Source of the DNA: Candidatus Enterousia sp.
GTDB lineage: Bacteria > Pseudomonadota > Alphaproteobacteria > Rs-D84
Assembly: GCA_045592905.1 (NCBI GenBank)
Contig: JAZNVR010000023.1
Span: 12,986 to 76,985 of the forward strand
Length of the DNA stretch: 64,000 nt
Reading direction: 5' to 3'
The notes beneath the pieces are model-generated. The model saw only the letters and a program-made list of their open reading frames with translations, made no database searches and was not told the origin of the DNA. A program made the translations under genes and the position numbers. Position 1 is the stretch's first letter. Each line of letters opens with the position of its first letter. Of the stretch, positions 783 through 9,314 are shown one piece after another.

Positions 783-1355
783 ATGACTAAAAAGAATAAC
801 TTATTAAAGGAATTTAGTGCGTTTGTTCAGCGTGGTAATGCGATAGATATGGCTGTCGGTATCATTGTTGGTAGTGTTATGACAAGCGTTGTAAATTCGT
901 TGGTAAAAGATGTTATTATGCCACCGATTGGGTTGTTAATTGGCGGTGTTGATTTTTCGCAATGGTTCTTTGTGTTGGGTGGGGGACAAGCTGGGGCGAC
1001 ATATGAAACGATAGCCCAGGCACAGGCGGCTGGGGCGACCACGTTGAATTTGGGGTTGTTCCTGAATTCTGTGGTTAGTTTCTTTATTACAATGTTTGCG
1101 ATATTTTTGTTTGTGCGTACGATGAATAAAATGCGTGATAAAAAGCCTGCAAACACACATGCGTGTCCGTATTGTAAATCTAATATTAATAATTCGGCAA
1201 CAAAATGTGCGTTTTGCTGTTCGGATGTAGTGCCGGTTGAAACAGCGGGTGTAGAAGAAAGCGATTTGAAAAAAGGATTGAAAAGTCTTAAAAAGGTCGC
1301 TGCAAGTGTTGCGACAGATTCTGTTAGTAAAATTAAAAAAATTACAAAGCGTTAA
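783..1355 (+). CDS. mscL: large-conductance mechanosensitive channel MscL with a C-terminal 4-Cys extension
   Basis: LKEFSAFVQRGNAIDMAVGIIVG...DVIMPPIGLLIGGVDFS is the MscL signature. A second TM helix is present, then an extra tail with CPYC-x11-CAFCC. Confidence 0.9.
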   Translation: MTKKNNLLKEFSAFVQRGNAIDMAVGIIVGSVMTSVVNSLVKDVIMPPIGLLIGGVDFSQWFFVLGGGQAGATYETIAQAQAAGATTLNLGLFLNSVVSFFITMFAIFLFVRTMNKMRDKKPANTHACPYCKSNINNSATKCAFCCSDVVPVETAGVEESDLKKGLKSLKKVAASVATDSVSKIKKITKR

Positions 1356-1411: not shown

Positions 1412-1675
1412 GTTGTTGTGTGTATATGAATGACAGGGTGTATTATGTATAGTTTTTTAAGGTGATGTTTTTGCTGTCGGGTAGATTATAGGAAGTATGT
1501 GTGTCGCTTTTTAGATGTTTTTAAGAAGTTGGATGTTTGTATGTGTTTGTTTTGTGGTATTGCTGTGTTGGATGTGTTGCTGAACGGGTAAAATATTTTT
1601 ATTGTGTATACTGTTTGTTAGAAAAAAGAGCCAGGAATATGCAGGGGACACGATATTATAAAGGCGTATAATGTA

Positions 1676-1858
1676 TATTATGTATACTTTACGATATAAA
1701 AATTAAAAATTTTTATATTCGTATGCACATCAATTCAAACATCGCTGACGCTCGTTTTCATTGGTGCACCTGTATACATAATATTCGTTATATCGCTTTG
1801 GCTTTTGGTTATGCTTCGCAACGGTTGATTGTTTGCTTTCCCTTGCGTGTATACCGCC
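1676..1858. repeat. left copy of a ~180-bp direct repeat (units A+B)
   Basis: 1676-1784 matches 3655-3763 exactly by eye. 1781-1858 matches 3857-3935 with a few mismatches. It contains the near-palindrome CGATATAAAAATT-AAA-AATTTTTATATTCG. Confidence 0.85.
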
Positions 1859-2080
1859 GCCAAAACGCACGCTGCAATTTTTCTGTTTTGCACTAATTAT
1901 TTTAACACAAAAACATCGTTTACACAAGCGTCATGTTTTGCGGTTTTCTGCGGTTTTGGAAAATATTTTTTTCAAGTTGTGCCGAATTTTTATTTTGCAA
2001 TTTAATTATCGCTTATAATTATAATTATTTATTTATATATTTATTTATAAATAAATAAAATAAATAAAAAATACATCGCC

Positions 2081-2335
2081 CTATTCTTGTGGTTTTGTGC
2101 TTATGGTATTGCGGCTCTGCCGCGGCTCAGCAATGGTTATGTTCAATAATTTTTCTATTTCTGTACGCTGTTTTTGTAGTGCGGCAATGTGTTCTTGTAT
2201 TTCTTTGATGTTTTGTTCTGTTTGTGTTGTTGGTTGTATTTTGTGCATATCGTGTGCCGCCCGCAGTTGTGTGTGGGCGGCAGAGATTTCTTGTGATATT
2301 TCTAAATATTTATCGCACAGATAGTTGTGTGTCAT
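2081..2335 (-). CDS. hypothetical coiled-coil protein (cassette gene 4)
   Basis: 84-aa ORF whose start overlaps the stop of the upstream ORF (ATGA-type overlap). It is Q/E/K-rich and helical. No recognisable family. Confidence 0.55.
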   Translation of the reverse strand: MTHNYLCDKYLEISQEISAAHTQLRAAHDMHKIQPTTQTEQNIKEIQEHIAALQKQRTEIEKLLNITIAEPRQSRNTISTKPQE

Positions 2336-2619
2336 AACTTGCCAATTTTAGCAGATAATATTGTTAAAGCAACATCTAAATCAGTGCGGTTATATGGCTC
2401 ATTGTATCCGTATTGACTGACTGCTTCTAATGCTCTGTCGGGCAATTCTAAGATTTCATTTTGTAATTTTAATAAATCAATACCGCTAAAAACAAGTCTG
2501 TGTTGACTGTATCGGTGTAATCCAAGATTGTGCTCCATTTGGTAGCCGCCAAGGTCGCAAAACATCCGTATTGCCATTTTAATAGATTTTTTTTGTATTT
2601 TTTGTGTCATTTTAATCAT
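2332..2619 (-). CDS. hypothetical protein (cassette gene 3)
   Basis: 95-aa ORF preceded by AAGGAA-N7-ATG, in a tightly packed same-strand operon. Confidence 0.6.
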   Translation of the reverse strand: MIKMTQKIQKKSIKMAIRMFCDLGGYQMEHNLGLHRYSQHRLVFSGIDLLKLQNEILELPDRALEAVSQYGYNEPYNRTDLDVALTILSAKIGKL

Positions 2620-2640
2620 TGTTTATTTCCTTTTGTTGTT

Positions 2641-2973
2641 TTATCTAAATTTGCGTACAAAATAAATTAACCATTTGTCGGTTATAAGTTGTGCGGGCTT
2701 TAATTTGTTTCTTATAAACGCGGCACATCTTTCTAATTTTTCGGGGTTGTATATTTCGCCGCTTGCATCCATTACTGACTTGATTGTATCTGCTGTTATG
2801 TATGCACTGTATCTATTTTGAAAAAAGTTATTCAAAAACTTTTGCCACGCTAATTTTGCAAGGTATTCATTGTCATTTTCTGGTGTAAATGTTGCTGGGT
2901 CTTTTATTAAATGTCCCAATTTTGTATAATCATTTACACGATTTAATGATTCTAATAATTCGGCTAAAATCAT
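2641..2973 (-). CDS. hypothetical protein (cassette gene 2)
   Basis: 110-aa ORF with a 4-nt overlap with the upstream gene. Composition is natural and no motif is recognised. Confidence 0.6.
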   Translation of the reverse strand: MILAELLESLNRVNDYTKLGHLIKDPATFTPENDNEYLAKLAWQKFLNNFFQNRYSAYITADTIKSVMDASGEIYNPEKLERCAAFIRNKLKPAQLITDKWLIYFVRKFR

Positions 2974-3269
2974 AGTATTATGCCCTTTTTTATAAATTCG
3001 TTTTTAATTGTGTTTATTGCGTTGTTCCATGCGTCGCGGTGTCTGCCGCGGTATGGTGGACGACATAATTTATAACCATAAAATATAATTATTTGTTGTT
3101 CATAATGTGATAAATTGCAATTATTCAAGATTGTTGAGATGTCTAAAACTTCATAATTGTTCAAATGTCTTGTGGGTGTTGTTTTTTTTAAAAAATATTT
3201 TACAATTTTTATATGTGAAAAATATTTAAAAATAATATTTTCAGTTTCAATTGTTTGTTTGTCTATCAT
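2970..3269 (-). CDS. hypothetical small protein, possibly HTH/sigma-region-4-like (cassette gene 1)
   Basis: The internal ATG at 3269 has AGGAAA-N6 upstream, while the 3398 start lies in low-quality sequence. LSHYEQQIIIFYGYK...AINTIKNEF weakly recalls phage RinA/sigma r4 regulators. Confidence 0.5.
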   Translation of the reverse strand: MIDKQTIETENIIFKYFSHIKIVKYFLKKTTPTRHLNNYEVLDISTILNNCNLSHYEQQIIIFYGYKLCRPPYRGRHRDAWNNAINTIKNEFIKKGIIL

Positions 3270-3654
3270 TTCTGCTTTCCTTTCTGTTTTGTTGTTTGAT
3301 TGTGTTATTGCCTGCTGCAATAACAATTTGCAGAAAAGAAAATCGCAACGCCCGCCCGCGGGCTGCGGGTCGCATGCAAACTGTCGTGCATGCTCCAATG
3401 ATTGCTTTGTGTGGTATCACATGCCAACCGCACGCAAACAACACAACGCCATGTGTAAAACACAACAACCTGCGTCATTTTGTTTGTGCGTGTAATATAT
3501 GCTCGCATGGCTCGCATATATAACACTTACAACACGCAATGACCGGTTGTGTTTTAAGACATGTCTTATGTTGTTGTTTGCTTTCTTTGCGGTTGGCAAA
3601 CGAACAACGCAACAACAACCTGCTACGCATAACCGCCTGCTGCGTATAACGCGT

Positions 3655-3935
3655 TATTATGTATACTTTACGATATAAAAATTAAAAATTTTTATATTCG
3701 TATGCACATCAATTCAAACATCGCTGACGCTCGTTTTCATTGGTGCACCTGTATACATAATATATGTGTATACTTTATGGTATAAAAATTAAAATATTTT
3801 TATATTCGCATGCACAACAATTCAAACATCGCTGACGCTCGTTTTCATTGTATGTAATATTCGTTATATCGCTTTGGTTTTTGGTTATGCATTGCAAACG
3901 GTTGATTAATTGCTTTCCCTTGCGTGTATACCGCC
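3655..3935. repeat. right copy of the direct repeat, with unit A duplicated (A, degenerate A', B)
   Basis: 3655-3763 equals 1676-1784. 3764-3850 is a diverged second A unit. 3857-3935 is approximately 1781-1858. Confidence 0.85.
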
Positions 3936-3953
3936 AGCAATATAGGTATTGTG

Positions 3954-4270
3954 TTTTTGTTTGATTGTGTGCTTATGGTGTTGTCGTCTTTGTTGCACGT
4001 GGCTGAAAAAACATGTTTGTACCCTATTCTGGTGTTAAAAATGTTAAAAAACCGCAGATTTCTGCGGGTTTTATCGTGTTTTTTGTGGGGTTTTACATAA
4101 TCGTGCGATTTTTTTGTTTGATTGTGTGCTTATGGTGTTGTCGTCTTTGTTGCACGTGGCTGAAAACATGTTTGTTATTACCCTGTTCCGGTGTTAAAAT
4201 GTTAAAAAAACCGCAGATTTCTGCGGTTTTTATCGTGTTTTTTGTGGGATTTTACATAATCGTGCGATTT
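3954..4270. repeat. two tandem copies of a ~157-bp unit, each with a terminator-like hairpin
   Basis: TTTTTGTTTGATTGTGTGCTTATGGTGTTGTCGTCTTTGTTGCACGTGGCTGAAAA...CCGCAGATTTCTGCGG...TTTTACATAATCGTGCGATT occurs twice back to back with a few indels. The hairpin is CCGCAGA-UU-UCUGCGG, flanked by A- and U-runs. Confidence 0.85.
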
Positions 4271-4481
4271 TTTTACCGTATTTAATGGCTTTTTCTTTGG
4301 TGTCTAGTAATGGGACATGTTTTGTTTTATTTTCGCTTTCGTATTCTGTTATTGCCTCGTTTGCGATTGTTGGTATATATTTTCGTATAACGCCAACAAA
4401 ATAAGGTGCAGGAACGGCATCAATTTTGCAATGTAGTGGACATCTGTTACAAATTATAGGCGTTTTTGTTTTTGATATCAT
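4230..4481 (-). CDS. small 4-Cys protein, one copy of the CxxCx3C...PTI...C module
   Basis: The ATG at 4481 lies 1 nt after the upstream stop. MISKTKTPIICNRCPLHC...IPTIANEAITEY...AIKYGKKIARLC. It is a paralogue of the three upstream genes. Confidence 0.65.
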   Translation of the reverse strand: MISKTKTPIICNRCPLHCKIDAVPAPYFVGVIRKYIPTIANEAITEYESENKTKHVPLLDTKEKAIKYGKKIARLCKIPQKTR

Positions 4482-4482
4482 T

Positions 4483-4983
4483 TTATTTCTCTTTGATTTG
4501 TCGTTGTTTTTTATAAAAGTCGCAACGTGCTGCGATTTGTTTTGCATATTGTATTGTTTGGGGTATGTTTTTGTTTTGTTGGGATATTTGCAACGTGCCA
4601 TGTGCATCTATGTACCCATGTATAGTTTGATTGTTGATGGTTGGTAAAAAGCCGTTTGTTGTTTTGTGTGTGCCTAGTTTGCATAATTTGTTGCAGCCGG
4701 TACAGGTGTTTGCATCAGAGGATTGTACTGTTGAGAATTTTTCAACATAGTGCGTACATGTTCTGGTAATTGTTTTTGCTGCGTCTATGGCGTTATATCT
4801 GCTGCGATATAGGTGTAAGAATCGTTTAGTGTTGTTTGCATCAATATAATATTTGATGGTTTTACCACAGATTGTAGGCAAGAAACCTTGACGTTTTTTC
4901 TCATAGTATACAGCGTCAATTTCGCAGTGTTTTTTACAGCCGTTGCATTTATTTGCGTTTAATCTGTTTGTCTGAGAAAACAT
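4483..4983 (-). CDS. 4-Cys module protein, two tandem modules
   Basis: MFSQTNRLNANKCNGCKKHC...FLPTICGKTIKYYID...AKTITRTCTHY, then CTGCNKLC...FLPTINNQTIHGYID...AKQIAARCDFY. The ATG at 4983 is preferred over the 5046 start. Confidence 0.7.
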   Translation of the reverse strand: MFSQTNRLNANKCNGCKKHCEIDAVYYEKKRQGFLPTICGKTIKYYIDANNTKRFLHLYRSRYNAIDAAKTITRTCTHYVEKFSTVQSSDANTCTGCNKLCKLGTHKTTNGFLPTINNQTIHGYIDAHGTLQISQQNKNIPQTIQYAKQIAARCDFYKKQRQIKEK

Positions 4984-4990
4984 AACTGTT

Positions 4991-5491
4991 TTACCTTTGG
5001 TAATGATCGCATAGTTTTGATATTTTGGCAGCACGAATACGTGCACGTAATGGGTCGTTATAGTGTGGAACTATTTTTGTGATACCACGTTTGTCTGTGT
5101 ATCTTCTTATTTCTCTGGTTCCGATAACAGGTAAAAAACCATCACGTGTTGCGGATTTTATGTGTTTTATTCCAAATGTGCATTTGTTTTCACAGCCTTG
5201 GCATTGTGTGTTTGTGTAGGTGCTGGGGCTTGGTTGTGCTGGTCGTGTGTAGTGTGGGCATAATTTTGATATTGTGCGTGCAAAAGAAATAGCGACAGCG
5301 GCATTTCTGTATTGTTGTACAAGGCGTTTTTTACCTTGTTTGTCGGTATATGATTTTTGTATTTTGTTGTTGATAGTAGGGACAAAACAACTGTAATTAT
5401 CGTGAAAAATAATTGTTTTTGCACCAAGTGTGCATTTGCGATTACAGCCGTTGCATCTGCCGATGTTAAGTTTTTGTGTCTGTGTAAACAT
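4991..5491 (-). CDS. 4-Cys module protein, two tandem modules
   Basis: MFTQTQKLNIGRCNGCNRKC...VPTINNKIQKSYTD...ARTISKLCPHY, then CQGCENKC...FLPVIGTREIRRYTD...AAKISKLCDHY. Confidence 0.7.
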   Translation of the reverse strand: MFTQTQKLNIGRCNGCNRKCTLGAKTIIFHDNYSCFVPTINNKIQKSYTDKQGKKRLVQQYRNAAVAISFARTISKLCPHYTRPAQPSPSTYTNTQCQGCENKCTFGIKHIKSATRDGFLPVIGTREIRRYTDKRGITKIVPHYNDPLRARIRAAKISKLCDHYQR

Positions 5492-5505
5492 CTGTTGAAA
5501 CTTTT

Positions 5506-5757
5506 TTATCTTTTGTTAGTGTTATATCCGCATTTTGCAGCGATTGCACGTGCCATTTGATGTGCGTATTCACGTTTTTTTGCAGATATCTTGGTTGTGA
5601 TGTTATTTTCGTCGGTGTATTCTGTGATTTTTCTGCAATTAATTGTTGGATAGTATTTTGCAGGAATAGAAAACAGTTTCCATTGTGTGCCTAAAACACA
5701 ATGAAATTCGCAACCGTTACAGTAGTCTTTGTCGTTTTGACTTAATTTTACACACAT
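5506..5757 (-). CDS. small 4-Cys protein, one module
   Basis: MCVKLSQNDKDYCNGCEFHC...YPTINCRKITEYTD...MARAIAAKCGY. It is the first gene of the array. Confidence 0.7.
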   Translation of the reverse strand: MCVKLSQNDKDYCNGCEFHCVLGTQWKLFSIPAKYYPTINCRKITEYTDENNITTKISAKKREYAHQMARAIAAKCGYNTNKR

Positions 5758-5852
5758 TTAGAATCCTTTTTTATTATGTATGCATTAAATATAGACAAAT
5801 ATAATAAAATGTCAAGTTGATTTTGTGTAAAATTTGTGTTATTTTGTTCTTT

Positions 5853-6566
5853 ATGAGATTAGATCAAGCATTAGTTTTTCAGAAAATATACCCGACACGT
5901 GCCAAAGCGGTTGCTGCAATTAATGCGGGATTGGTAACGGTAAATGGCGTTGTGGCAAAGAAACCAAGTCAGTCTGTTGATACGGATGATGTTTTGGTTG
6001 GTGGTGTTTTGCCCTATTCTGCTGGGCGTGGTTTGTTAAAGTTGGCACGTGCACTGGAATATTTTAATGTTAATCCAGATGGTTTTGTGTGTTTGGATGT
6101 TGGTGCAAGTACAGGCGGATTTACAGAAGTTTTATTGAAAAGTGGTGCGAAAACTGTTTATGCTGTTGATGTTGGTTCAAATCAATTAATTGATGAATTG
6201 CGTAATGATTTGCGTGTTGTTTCGTTGGAACAAACAGATATTCGTGATTTAAAGCCGCTGTCTGTGGTTGATTTGATTGTTATTGATGTTTCATTTGTGT
6301 CGTTGGTAAATATTGTAGATTGTTTACCGCAATGGGGTGCGAAAACAATAATTGTGTTGATAAAACCACAATTTGAAGTCCCACGTGATGTATCTGCAAA
6401 GTTTCGTGGTGTTATAAAATCAAAAGAGTGGCATGATTATTCTGTTAATCGTGTTGTGGATGCGTTTAGAATGCATAATTTTGATTGTTTGGGCGTGATT
6501 GAATCACCGGTCAGGGGCGGCAGTGGCAATGTGGAATTTTTAGCCTGTTTCAAGTTGAAAAAATAG
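5853..6566 (+). CDS. tlyA: TlyA-family rRNA 2'-O-methyltransferase (S4 + FtsJ-like domains)
   Basis: MRLDQALV...RAKA...I..G.V.VNG (S4-like), then LDVGASTGGFTEVLL and AVDVG SAM-binding motifs. The ATG at 5853 is preferred to the 5817 start. Confidence 0.85.
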   Translation: MRLDQALVFQKIYPTRAKAVAAINAGLVTVNGVVAKKPSQSVDTDDVLVGGVLPYSAGRGLLKLARALEYFNVNPDGFVCLDVGASTGGFTEVLLKSGAKTVYAVDVGSNQLIDELRNDLRVVSLEQTDIRDLKPLSVVDLIVIDVSFVSLVNIVDCLPQWGAKTIIVLIKPQFEVPRDVSAKFRGVIKSKEWHDYSVNRVVDAFRMHNFDCLGVIESPVRGGSGNVEFLACFKLKK

Positions 6567-6620: not shown

Positions 6621-7562
6621 TTAGTTCATTTTTATACCAAATAAACGGATTTTATTGTCTTTTGTTGTGGTGATAAATGGTATATTTGTTTTGTTGTTGT
6701 GCTTTTTTTGTTTGCGTTTATATTCTTGTTTTATGAAATCTTCGGGATATAAGTCAATTTTATATGCAGTACGTGTAAACAGTGAATATATGTTTACCGG
6801 TGTGAATTGATAATAGAATGGTTTGATTGCATAGAAATGCATAATATGTATTTTGTTTTGTACAAAATTACGTTCAGATTGTTTGAATTTCTTGTCAATA
6901 TAAATTTCTGGTATGCAATTGTATCGCAGTGGTAATTCAAGTATTTGCCCGTCAAAGGTAGTGTTTATGATGTCTTGATCCGGGTAAGTTAGTTCGCTTT
7001 TAATTGGCCATGGTGATTTAATTGTGCGTAAATATTCTAAATTTAATAACAATACCCCAGAATTAACGTATAAATCATGTTGTAAATACTTTTCTTTGAA
7101 TTCACGAACGTATATGCCGTTTGGATCGTTTGGGATATTTGTTGGTGCCATATCCCGAATTGCACCCAATGCATATTTGGAAATGTCCGTTTGATATAGT
7201 TCTGTTAAATCAGATTGAATCAATGTGTCAGAATCAAGGTATAACAATTTGTTTTGATTTGGAAAAACTGTGTGTGCAAACATGCGATAGAATATTACAG
7301 GCGACCAACGTGAATAGTCTATGTTTGCATATGGATTTCGTCTGTTTGGGATGGTTTTCCATATCAGTTTGCCACCCTGCCCGATGATTTTTTTTATCTT
7401 GCGATGACCATGTGTGTGGGGTGCAACCATACAGTGTACATTAATGGTTGTGTCGGGATTCTTGTGTTCAAATAATGAATAAATAGAAACGGCCGCCATT
7501 CGCCAAAAGTTGTTATCAAAACAATATAATACATTTATTTCAGACATGATAAAAACCAGCAT
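6621..7562 (-). CDS. glycosyltransferase family 8 (LPS/glycan alpha-glycosyltransferase-like)
   Basis: NVLYCFDNNF...LLYLDSDTLI (DxD)...YVNSGVLLLNL is the GT8 pattern. An alternative start is at 7547 (MSEINV). Confidence 0.8.
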   Translation of the reverse strand: MLVFIMSEINVLYCFDNNFWRMAAVSIYSLFEHKNPDTTINVHCMVAPHTHGHRKIKKIIGQGGKLIWKTIPNRRNPYANIDYSRWSPVIFYRMFAHTVFPNQNKLLYLDSDTLIQSDLTELYQTDISKYALGAIRDMAPTNIPNDPNGIYVREFKEKYLQHDLYVNSGVLLLNLEYLRTIKSPWPIKSELTYPDQDIINTTFDGQILELPLRYNCIPEIYIDKKFKQSERNFVQNKIHIMHFYAIKPFYYQFTPVNIYSLFTRTAYKIDLYPEDFIKQEYKRKQKKHNNKTNIPFITTTKDNKIRLFGIKMN

Positions 7563-8476
7563 AAAATTCGTTGTTTGAAACGCAGATATCTGCGTGGAAT
7601 ATATTTACATGATTCAATAACAGCTGCCTTGGATTCGGCATGGGCGGTGTTATATTGTTTTGATTTTATAATTGTTTCGTGTATCAAATATTTAAAGGTG
7701 TCGGTATAAAATTTTCGCCAAAAGATATGATTGTATTTATCTAGCAGGTTGTTATAAATATATTTGAAGTATTTTGGAAACCATGTAACGTTGTTTTCAC
7801 AAAAGTCTTGTGAACTTATATTATTTTGATGTGCACGATGATATACGCATACATTGTTGCATTCTGCACTGGAATTTGCACGATATGCAATATTTAACAT
7901 GAATGTTAAATCGTCACCAAATGTTGTAAATTCTGGTAAAAATCGTGTGTCACCAATTAATTCACGTTTATATATACGTCGCCATATCCAGCACCATGAA
8001 TGCTTTTGTGGTAATAATAAGAATTCTTCGGGTGCGTATGAGGTTACGAAATCTTCCAAGGAAAAAGTCGCTTTTGGGTTTTCTTTGAATGTGAATGCAC
8101 TGTCAATCATATGTGTTCGTCCGCCAGCCATATCGGCACCAGTTGTTTCAATTAACTGTATCAGTGTTTGTAATGCCGTATCTGTATAGCAGTCGTCGGA
8201 ATCCAAGAATGCAATATATCTGCCTTGGGCGGTGTCCAGACCATGGTTGCGTGCCACAGATGGGCCGGATTGTTTTGATAATTGAATCAGTTTGAAACGT
8301 TTGTCTTTTTTTATGTATTGCTTTATTGTTTTTACAGAATTGTCGGTACTGGCATCATCAATTATGATGCATTCCCAATTTTTTTCTGTCTGGGCAGATA
8401 CGGATTTTAATGCATCGGTAATATACTGTTCGCCGTTATAGTTCGGCATAATAATAGATACAATTGGTTCTTTCAT
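7535..8476 (-). CDS. glycosyltransferase family 2
   Basis: VSIIMPNYNGEQYITDALKSVSAQT...IIIDDASTDNS...ARNHGL..A.G.YIAFLDSDD is the classic GT2 N-terminal domain. Confidence 0.85.
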   Translation of the reverse strand: MKEPIVSIIMPNYNGEQYITDALKSVSAQTEKNWECIIIDDASTDNSVKTIKQYIKKDKRFKLIQLSKQSGPSVARNHGLDTAQGRYIAFLDSDDCYTDTALQTLIQLIETTGADMAGGRTHMIDSAFTFKENPKATFSLEDFVTSYAPEEFLLLPQKHSWCWIWRRIYKRELIGDTRFLPEFTTFGDDLTFMLNIAYRANSSAECNNVCVYHRAHQNNISSQDFCENNVTWFPKYFKYIYNNLLDKYNHIFWRKFYTDTFKYLIHETIIKSKQYNTAHAESKAAVIESCKYIPRRYLRFKQRILCWFLSCLK

Positions 8477-8481
8477 GGTTT

Positions 8482-9183
8482 TTATTCATATGGGCAACTG
8501 GTTGCGTTGACATAAGTGCCGGTGTCGTCGGTAAAACTGGTATTGGCTGGAATATAACAATCTGAAACAGTATTAGAAGAAATCTGCCGTGTATTAACGC
8601 TGTATTGTTGTTTTATACATCTACCGTCCTGGTCTGTTGTGCCGTTTGCATTAAGTATTATGCCGACACCTGTGCCAGCATAGTCTTTATAAGATGTTGT
8701 CATTTGGGCCGTTGGTGTCAGATTTTGTGTTGAACATAGTGTCCAAATTTTGGAGGTGTATACTGATATTTGTGTCGCTGGTACTGTTGCAACACTTTTC
8801 CCATTGTAATTTGGACATGCATAGCATCTGGCACCAGAAGCGGTACAAGATGTTAGTTTTGATTGGTTTGCAGATGTGTTGTCAACAGATGTGTCGCCTA
8901 TTATACAAGAGGCCAAATAACTTCCTGCGTTGCATAGTGTAATGTAACTGTCTGGTTGTGTATTCTGTAAGTATTCCCATATTTGATCTTTGGTGGTTAC
9001 TGCAGCTGTTGTTATTCCTGCATTGCTGCAGAGGGTTCTGCATGTTTCTTCGTTGGTGCTGGTTGATAATGTGTTAAAAGTTGATAGTCTGATTGTGACA
9101 GCACCATATACAGTGTTAATTTTATAACCAATAAAAACACTGCAACTGATTATACTGTATAAGATTTTGCTGATTGTTCTCAT
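8482..9183 (-). CDS. secreted Ser/Thr/Asn-rich, Cys-rich hypothetical protein
   Basis: The ATG at 9183 (GGGGA-N5) is preferred to the TTG at 9195. It has a signal-peptide-like N-terminus and many Cys and N-x-S/T triplets. It lies 5 nt upstream of the GT2 gene on the same strand. Confidence 0.65.
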   Translation of the reverse strand: MRTISKILYSIISCSVFIGYKINTVYGAVTIRLSTFNTLSTSTNEETCRTLCSNAGITTAAVTTKDQIWEYLQNTQPDSYITLCNAGSYLASCIIGDTSVDNTSANQSKLTSCTASGARCYACPNYNGKSVATVPATQISVYTSKIWTLCSTQNLTPTAQMTTSYKDYAGTGVGIILNANGTTDQDGRCIKQQYSVNTRQISSNTVSDCYIPANTSFTDDTGTYVNATSCPYE

Positions 9184-9314
9184 GCTATTCCCCAAATAAC
9201 CTCTGGTTATTGTATAGTTTTTTTATGTTAAAGTCAAATCGTTTGTTTAATTTCCTTGAAATCTGTCGGATTTGTCGCTAAAATCGGGCTGATTATAAAA
9301 TATAGGATGTAATT

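Follow-up and report, generated by a model that had tools for sequence, protein, structure and literature searches.

What is the nature, and what may be the role, of six tandem copies of one small four-cysteine module in the chromosome of a gut bacterium? The question is raised by a stretch of 64,000 nucleotides (nt) from Candidatus Enterousia sp. (assembly GCA_045592905.1, contig JAZNVR010000023.1, positions 12,986 to 76,985 of the forward strand), which we call the window and which is chromosomal, since it carries RNase P RNA, tRNAs, leuS, mscL and aroK. Enterousia belongs to the order Rs-D84, whose genomes are below 1 Mbp and whose members are fermentative and thought to be partner-dependent (PMC12306168). 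Judged by sequence comparison, the array appears to be an old operon of a candidate new family of small Cys4 metal-binding domains. Our preferred reading of its products, held at slightly under an even chance, is that they are soluble, basic, metal-clamped binding modules with a regulatory or conflict-related function, and the choice of a specific role, regulation or conflict, is the more doubtful part of it.

As read from the sequence, the six copies of a module of about 80 amino acids (aa) are distributed as 1+2+2+1 over four adjacent minus-strand genes in the order D-C-B-A. The features of the array are the following.

5853-6566, divergent from the array: tlyA (TIGR00478 match, E = 2e-60).
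5788-5815, minus strand: sigma-70-like promoter (TTGACA, 16 nt, TATATT; 11/12 match), upstream of gene D and divergent from tlyA.
5506-5757, minus strand: gene D, 83 aa, one module of the first-single type, with Cys13, Cys16, Cys20 and Cys76.
4991-5491, minus strand: gene C, 166 aa, two fused modules (about aa 1-84 and 90-166).
4483-4983, minus strand: gene B, 166 aa, start MFSQTN, two fused modules (about aa 1-83 and 84-166).
4230-4481, minus strand: gene A, 83 aa, start MISKTK, one module of the last-single type with the CNRC variant, end CKIPQKTR.
4206-4231, minus strand: GC-rich intrinsic-terminator-like hairpin with a T run, immediately following the stop codon of gene A; AAAAACCGCAGAAATCTGCGGTTTTTTT.

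For genes A and B the sensible starts are ATG 4481 and ATG 4983, and the longer mechanical open reading frames (ORFs) at 4230-4607 and 4483-5046, respectively, were set aside. The gaps D-C, C-B and B-A measure 14, 7 and 1 nt. Both the four-gene layout with its 1, 2, 2 and 1 modules and the gaps of 1-14 nt are thus as described in an initial annotation of this DNA, which had been made from the letters alone. With a promoter upstream of D, a terminator after A and such short gaps between them, the four genes look like one operon and would be read together. In 10 related loci, too, the first array gene is preceded by conserved -35 and -10 boxes and by an AAGGA ribosome-binding site. Beyond the operon, a tandem duplication of 157-159 nt (3954-4115 versus 4111-4274) has copied the last 14 codons of gene A and the terminator hairpin, which leaves an orphan gene-A 3' end and a second terminator (4052-4067) downstream.

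The repetition of the module is evident in spite of considerable divergence. The six copies, with pairwise identities of 21-37%, agree throughout in eight alignment columns (C, C, C, P, I, Y, I, C); BLASTP between array genes reached E = 1e-07 and 4e-10 in single comparisons, and each array gene matched the profile hidden Markov model (HMM) of the family, built from alignment A4, at E = 2e-17 to 1e-23, where genes A and D had been included in the model and their own scores are therefore partly circular. These scores indicate that the repetition is not due to chance. A scan of the 64 kb with the same family HMM yielded no further copy. The module motif first proposed holds in outline but not with the strictness given to it: gene A has CNRC, YES and CKIP in place of CxGC, Y-x-D and C-x-[HFY]-Y, gene D ends in CGYN, and the first module of gene C (C1) has I-x3-Y-x-D.

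What the family does conserve is the cysteines. Among 93 diverse single-module relatives the four Cys are the sole invariant columns, with M1, the Gly of CxGC and one Pro nearly invariant, and the 24 doublets examined keep all four Cys without exception in each of their halves. The set of 93 had been picked by a motif filter, and we therefore give a recount made without it, which covers 197 near-full-length module matches in 179 proteins (family proteins and related loci are designated by P and L numbers). CxxCxxxC is present in 196 of the 197, the exception being P0128 with CxCx4C; the distal Cys, which sits 49-93 residues away at the end of a helix, is truly lost only in P0096, and all four Cys are kept in at least 195. 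The feature by which a Cys4 metal-binding mini-domain was to be recognized, conservation of the four Cys family-wide, is thus present, and the loss of the pattern among relatives, which would have spoken against a metal site, is restricted to these single cases.

The array proteins have no apparent signal peptide, as had been noted at first sight, and no apparent transmembrane helix (maximum Kyte-Doolittle mean over 15 residues at most 1.25). They are also strongly basic, with isoelectric points (pI) of 9.2-10.1 and 14-31 Lys+Arg against 7-10 Asp+Glu, compared with a median pI of 5.9 for the 31 other proteins of the window and of 8.7 for the family. In proteins that carry no signal peptide and belong to a gut anaerobe, a cytoplasmic metal site is much likelier than disulfides. 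It is probable that the four Cys hold one metal centre, either structural Zn(II) or [4Fe-4S], and the metal site suggested by the initial annotation gains support from the conservation just described. The CX2CX3C motif with a distal Cys holds a cubane cluster in the N-terminal domain of molybdopterin oxidoreductases (FS0) and at N7 of NuoG. In the 2,4-dienoyl-CoA reductase family it binds a cubane [4Fe-4S] (PMC11574389), so that, while the ferredoxin pattern CxxCxxCxxxCP is indeed absent as first stated, iron-sulfur spacing had been dismissed too early.

Does the module belong to any known family or fold? Its structure was predicted with AlphaFold2 from the family alignment, giving a predicted local distance difference test (pLDDT) of 76.8 and a predicted template-modelling score (pTM) of 0.64 for doublet B, and 76.1 and 0.61 for single module D. 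The predicted module consists of an N-terminal Cys-containing loop, four beta-strands (21-27, 34-39, 46-48 and 54-56 in D) and one helix (62-75) ending at the fourth Cys, preceded by an N-terminal tag that is predicted to be disordered. Searches of the known families returned nothing significant: the best matches were E = 0.035 in Pfam (zf-FCS, 14.4 bits versus a cut-off of 22.4), E = 0.0034 in PHROGs with no matched stretch, and E = 0.016 over 27 residues in PADLOC; a profile search of Protein Data Bank (PDB) sequences was likewise negative, with a ferredoxin at E = 2.7, and NCBIfam gave zero matches for the four array genes and P0064. A fold match was to be accepted at Foldseek E <= 0.001, or at a template-modelling score (TM) > 0.5 across most of the model. 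Against PDB the doublet reached at best E = 0.63 and the single module E = 1.0 (TM <= 0.37), and against BFVD the best match of the single module was an unnamed protein at E = 0.25 and TM 0.50. The module, called unrecognised from the beginning, has remained so in every one of these collections, and judged against PDB and BFVD it is provisionally a new fold. The Fer4-clan ferredoxins were considered and rejected, as CxxCxxCxxxCP is absent and Fer4_2 and Fer4_6 match gene B at E = 0.17-0.66, far under the cut-offs.

The iron-sulfur motif invites the proposal that the modules are small electron carriers, each with a [4Fe-4S] or Fe(Cys)4 centre, that serve this anaerobe in its fermentation. The cubane-binding precedent (PMC11574389), the strictly fermentative life of the host in the gut (PMC12306168), the faint sub-threshold Fer4 signal on gene B and the PDB ferredoxin at E = 2.7 all fit this proposal. 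On the other hand ferredoxins and rubredoxins are typically acidic whereas the array proteins are strongly basic, electron carriers would not be expected as 5-10 paralogues at 21-37% identity with prophage copies and with non-redox and Panacea-like fusions, and no locus examined has a neighbouring oxidoreductase. Such a role for the array is quite unlikely.

Searched exhaustively with a profile, 1.84 billion cluster representatives yielded 186 clusters (50% identity) at E <= 0.001, a sizeable orphan family. Most members have 75-120 aa, start with M(S/P)FTQ(E/K) and end with ...LCD(H/N)YKTR, and every named one is a 'MAG: hypothetical protein [Alphaproteobacteria bacterium]', MAG standing for metagenome-assembled genome. 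Two apparent giant multi-module proteins, P0070 and P0179 (987 and 614 aa, with 9 and 5 matched stretches), were rejected as false positives, being made of Ser/Gly-rich beta-propeller-like repeats (VSCGGVSANCSGSSQGT.DYF.SKY) without CxxCxxxC. When species-representative genomes were scanned with the doublet alignment, relatives came up only in animal-gut MAGs, named Candidatus Enterousia sp. or Alphaproteobacteria bacterium, and the locus is held by sequencing runs from metagenomes of gut, faeces and sheep gut. Judged by its named members, the family seems to be confined to uncultured gut Alphaproteobacteria (Rs-D84, Candidatus Enterousia and relatives) and their mobile elements.

A partner-dependent, genome-reduced host also suggests that the modules could be effectors, secreted or injected to act on the host or partner cell. 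Rs-D84 bacteria have been proposed to be obligate symbionts or parasites (PMC12306168), the disordered N-terminal tag M(S/P)FTQ(E/K) and the basic tail ...CDHYKTR are conserved, and paralogue expansion is typical of effector repertoires. Yet the proteins have no signal peptide, the loci examined contain no secretion system gene, no eukaryote-like or known effector domain was found, and neither the first nor the last gene of the array has the tag. We regard this possibility as very unlikely.

Is the array a recent acquisition or an old constituent of these chromosomes? The order tlyA, array, dif-like site, mscL(-aroK) recurs in every related locus whose flanks reach far enough to show it. The array keeps this position in L001, L002, L006, L007, L009, L010 and L012-L017, and also in the more divergent relatives L035 and L038, whose modules were found only by the exhaustive search. 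Each array holds 5-10 modules. In a tree of the modules these fall into position-specific orthologous groups across loci: a D-type first single, an optional second single, C-type doublets, extra doublet types that are absent from the window, B-type doublets and an A-type last single. Orthologues of gene D occupy the first array position in all related loci, those of gene C are L006 g3, L007 g3 and L010 g3, those of gene B are present in all arrays compared, and the gene A orthologues P0004-P0006 are 70-76% identical. The N-terminal halves of the doublets cluster together and so do the C-terminal halves, indicating one ancestral doublet followed by whole-gene duplications.

The ratio of non-synonymous to synonymous substitution rates (dN/dS, Nei-Gojobori) against three relatives is 0.06-0.54, which, with dS saturated at 0.7-2.5, supports only a gene-wide value well below 1 and does not serve as a test of positive selection. 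The array genes thus appear to be under purifying selection overall. Their dN is 2-8 times that of leuS, mscL and aroK in comparison with L001 and L007, the two relatives that carry those genes, and similar to that of tlyA in comparison with the closest relative. Two early impressions therefore have to be given up or corrected. The array does not lie in an accessory block, as its place beside tlyA is fixed in every related genome, distant genera included; and the picture of fast-evolving tandem paralogues has to be modified, as the paralogues are old, have position-specific orthologues under purifying selection and show no rapid turnover.

The same comparisons bear on the view that the array is no more than a spacer rich in A and C, in which frames are open by chance or pseudogenes are decaying. 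In favour of this view one could cite the shortness of the proteins, the skewed composition of the sense strand and the finding that no RNA run holds the locus. It is refuted by the comparative data, namely the 186 clusters, the invariant Cys, the low dN/dS, the conservation of promoter, ribosome-binding site and terminator, and the retention of the array in genomes of less than 1 Mbp, and we give it virtually no weight. A check for pseudogenes thus came out on the side of genuine genes, and by all comparative signs the array genes are real, expressed-looking and long retained in very small genomes.

Why, then, does the neighbourhood look accessory? A site resembling dif lies in the spacer that separates the array from mscL, with the following features around it.

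1661-1688: 28-nt dif-like XerC/D site between the array and mscL; AAGGCGTATAATGTATATTATGTATACT.
1772-1799: inverted dif-like site, 84 nt after the first dif-like site.
2081-2335, 2332-2619, 2641-2973 and 2970-3266, minus strand: four small cassette ORFs with no Pfam or PHROG match.
3643-3667: second dif-like site, with a 7-nt centre.
1676-1863 versus 3655-3940: flank repeat, with an extra partial copy of 109 nt at 3763-3871.
Dif-like site in other loci: L001 10596-10623; L007 11063-11090; L009 11403-11430; L010 12444-12471.
Dif-like site in further loci: L019 10719-10746; L035 8017-8044; L038 8671-8698.

The 28-nt site occurs once per locus in the array-mscL spacer and is conserved across genera. 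The window site equals the E. coli dif site at 21-22 of 28 positions, the whole core included. No locus shows a sign change of GC skew at the site, which is at most a candidate mark of the terminus. An RNA element in this spacer was also considered and rejected, as Rfam gave terminator look-alikes only and the conserved element is the dif-like DNA site. The repeat-bracketed cassette (1661-3940) looks like an integrated element that exploits Xer recombination. Since the layout is typical of Xer-integrating elements, the variable content would belong to the hotspot and not to the array, and the accessory look of the neighbourhood can be ascribed to the adjacent dif-like Xer site hosting integrated elements. 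The phage or plasmid origin that had been proposed for the array on account of the nearby cassette is not upheld, the cassette being explained by the conserved dif-like site.

Some further observations concern the surroundings of the array. The stretch between tlyA and leuS (window 6621-9195; compare L009 5506-8874, L007 4630-8093 and L035 3339-4909) is a second variable spot, holding GT8/GT2 glycosyltransferases in the window and L009, two PAP2 phosphatases in L007, a protein with Flg_new repeats in L035 and nothing in L001. MscL (window 783-1355, 190 aa) has a C-terminal extension of about 60 aa with a zinc-ribbon-like motif, CPYC...C.FCC, that is conserved in related loci. The plus-strand GC skew is positive over nearly all 64 kb irrespective of gene orientation (cumulative 9.1), and the sense strand of the module genes is A/C-rich (AT skew -0.34 at 4-5 kb).

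Homologues of the module do occur in a prophage. In L018, a MAG from water-buffalo colon, a P2-like prophage has three single-module genes among its tail genes, ahead of those for lysis, in the order tape measure, gpU (phrog_76, E = 4e-54), gpX (phrog_46), three module genes, gpD (phrog_52, E = 2e-110), endolysin and spanin. They thereby appear to take the typical position of a moron, that is, an inserted, non-structural gene set. The phage link of the initial annotation accordingly fails for the context of the array in the window and stands through these homologues; elsewhere than in the window, the phage connection of the family seems real but thin.

The module is also found joined to other domains. 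In L019 (GCA_045637165.1, 8001-16599), at the tlyA-adjacent site, a single module is fused to a C-terminal Panacea-like domain (SocA_Panacea in Pfam at E = 0.053, a sub-threshold 14.9 bits versus 25.7; phrog_1281 at E = 4e-05). Downstream of this fusion follow a gene for a 359-aa ART-PolyVal ADP-ribosyltransferase, a dif-like site and an integrated microvirus (Phage_ORF5, Phage_F capsid, REP_ORF2-G2P), the last of which begins right after the dif-like site. A homologue search with the C-terminal domain of P0058 brought up, apart from the query, a single close relative and no Pfam annotation, and the Panacea link is weak. Fusions to N-terminal domains without a known family occur in P0071, P0098 and P0161, and to C-terminal ones in P0102 and, with an '...LFPxxY' domain, in L021, L033 and L038; L038 also has a module fused to a two-helix membrane anchor. 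Such free recombination with other domains makes a binding or adaptor module likelier than an enzyme. The LFP..Y domain contains Cys (...C.D.[FY][IM].Q.[LV]G..LFP..Y..K) and recurs in L021 (1210-2437), L033 (2623-3336) and L038 (6899-7318), either fused to the module C-terminus or as a separate gene inside arrays. In three unrelated contigs (L005 391-771, L022 5233-5613, L029 6741-7130) a single-module gene is immediately followed by the gene of a conserved protein of 126-129 aa, predicted to be a lipoprotein (MK..LHKLP..LL.L.GC...), which matches nothing in Pfam or PHROGs and is a possible functional partner. Pfam and PHROGs searches with these recurrent neighbours, namely the lipoprotein, small helix-turn-helix-like proteins, the FPxxY domain and the cassette ORFs, gave nothing useful.

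Orphan immunity-gene arrays are known from polymorphic-toxin loci and acquired interbacterial defence clusters. A tight tandem of diverged, small, cytoplasmic paralogues resembles them, and the modules could accordingly be a bank of neutralisers against the toxins of competitors or phages, or the partners in toxin-antitoxin pairs, a proposal to which the Panacea-like fusion and following ART-PolyVal gene of L019 would lend themselves. This is an unlikely explanation of the array: neither the window nor more than 10 related loci have a toxin-like gene beside the array, the ART-PolyVal gene being seen only in L019, PADLOC gives no match, and the Panacea assignment stayed sub-threshold and was not strengthened. 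Moreover the orthologous groups are stable across species, and no immunity family is known to have four invariant Cys as its framework.

We therefore return to the binding modules proposed at the outset, to which the Cys4 clamp, the small fold, the disordered tag, the fusions, the prophage copies and the basic charge together point. The four-gene operon would express six copies of a lineage-specific domain, each made of an N-terminal Cys knuckle (C-x-G-C-x3-C), a four-stranded antiparallel beta-sheet and a C-terminal helix. The fourth Cys would lie in the last turn of the helix, and one metal centre would tie the helix end to the knuckle. The soluble, cytoplasmic and basic products may then act as metal-stabilised or metal-sensing modules that bind nucleic acid or an acidic or conserved cellular partner, serving as small regulators or as proteins of phage or toxin conflict and not as enzymes or electron carriers. 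In the chromosome the domain forms a long-established operon of many paralogues, fixed in its place next to tlyA and the dif-like site, and the same domain is also carried by the prophage moron and in the fusions. Among the alternatives, probability decreases from immunity or antitoxin proteins through iron-sulfur carriers and secreted effectors to non-genes.

Several points weigh against this proposal. Stable positional orthology and purifying selection would be no less expected of a housekeeping-like role than of one in conflict. The phage side consists of one prophage and a few mobile-looking contexts, since PHROGs is without any such family; in IMG/VR, with 2.9 million viral contigs, a narrower alignment (A5) gave 63 pattern matches of which 0 were confirmed. 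The basic pI is only suggestive as a sign of nucleic-acid or protein binding. The pLDDT is only about 76, with the termini, including the region of the last Cys, less confident, and no RNA sequencing runs holding the locus were found.

The significance of the family does not depend on the role alone. Genome-reduced symbionts shed dispensable genes, yet every Rs-D84 genome examined keeps 5-10 modules, behind a promoter that is strong and conserved, and the family is thus probably important. With no detectable relative by sequence or predicted fold, the module is a candidate metal-binding domain worth an entry in Pfam as a domain of unknown function (DUF). Its copies in a prophage moron and its toxin-antitoxin-like and membrane fusions offer a handle on phage-host or cell-cell conflict in a lineage without genetics. 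As the modules are small, soluble and easily expressed, their metal content, structure and partners are directly testable.

How does the module compare with known systems? The Lar restriction alleviation proteins and similar small phage zinc-ribbon proteins are likewise small, Cys-containing and beta-rich, and one of them appears at rank 19 among the weak matches of the BFVD search (TM 0.47/0.57); with E = 0.99, however, this match lacks significance, and the sequences are not similar and have their Cys in another pattern. With the Panacea (SocA/PanA) antitoxin fusions there is a likeness in P0058, P0050, P0072 and P0084, which combine a module with a weakly SocA_Panacea-like C-terminal domain, but the match is sub-threshold and the window genes have neither such a domain nor an adjacent toxin. 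The dienoyl-CoA reductase-type and molybdopterin oxidoreductase sites share C-x2-C-x3-C followed directly by a beta-strand, plus a distal Cys. They differ in that this Cys is 11-34 residues away, compared with 49-93 here, and in being domains of large enzymes where ours are free-standing basic proteins, with no match in sequence or fold.

A closer parallel in gene organization is offered by the Ogr/Delta family (PF04606). In P4 the Delta protein, of about 166 aa, consists of two fused copies. Ogr/Delta proteins are also Cys4 proteins of about 70-80 aa encoded near the P2-like tail gene D, just as the L018 modules stand beside gpD, and their single and fused-doublet forms parallel the singles and doublets of the array. 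Ogr, however, is a C-x2-C-x22-C-x4-C zinc ribbon with another motif and fold, and the L018 genes lie before gpD and not after it. Membership is excluded by the different spacing and by the lack of a Pfam match at E <= 10.

The best analogy for a mode of action is provided by the WhiB-like (Wbl) proteins (PF02467). These are found in Actinobacteria and actinophages, have about 80-120 aa with four invariant Cys, exist as diverged paralogues, carry an iron-sulfur cluster and are all-helical. The modules of the array resemble them in being small and lineage-restricted, with four invariant Cys, several diverged paralogues and phage-borne homologues. There is no sequence match between the two, and they differ in Cys spacing (C-x2-C-x3-C...C here, C-x(14-22)-C-x2-C-x5-C in Wbl), in fold (a predicted beta-sheet with one helix here) and in the phylum of the host; membership in the Wbl family is excluded by the spacing, the lack of a Pfam match and the predicted fold. 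The analogy would be one of function, in the sense of a metal-cluster-bearing partner of the transcription machinery. In its boldest form, which we consider rather unlikely, the module would be an undescribed metal-cluster fold that defines a class of small regulators specific to Rs-D84, functional analogues of WhiB that have a redox- or metal-sensitive Cys4 centre and are exchanged with prophages. If this were true, the operon of 5-10 modules would be a core regulatory or anti-phage organ of genomes smaller than 1 Mbp, its modules would bind nucleic acid or the transcription or translation machinery, and prophages would use them for takeover or protection of the host.

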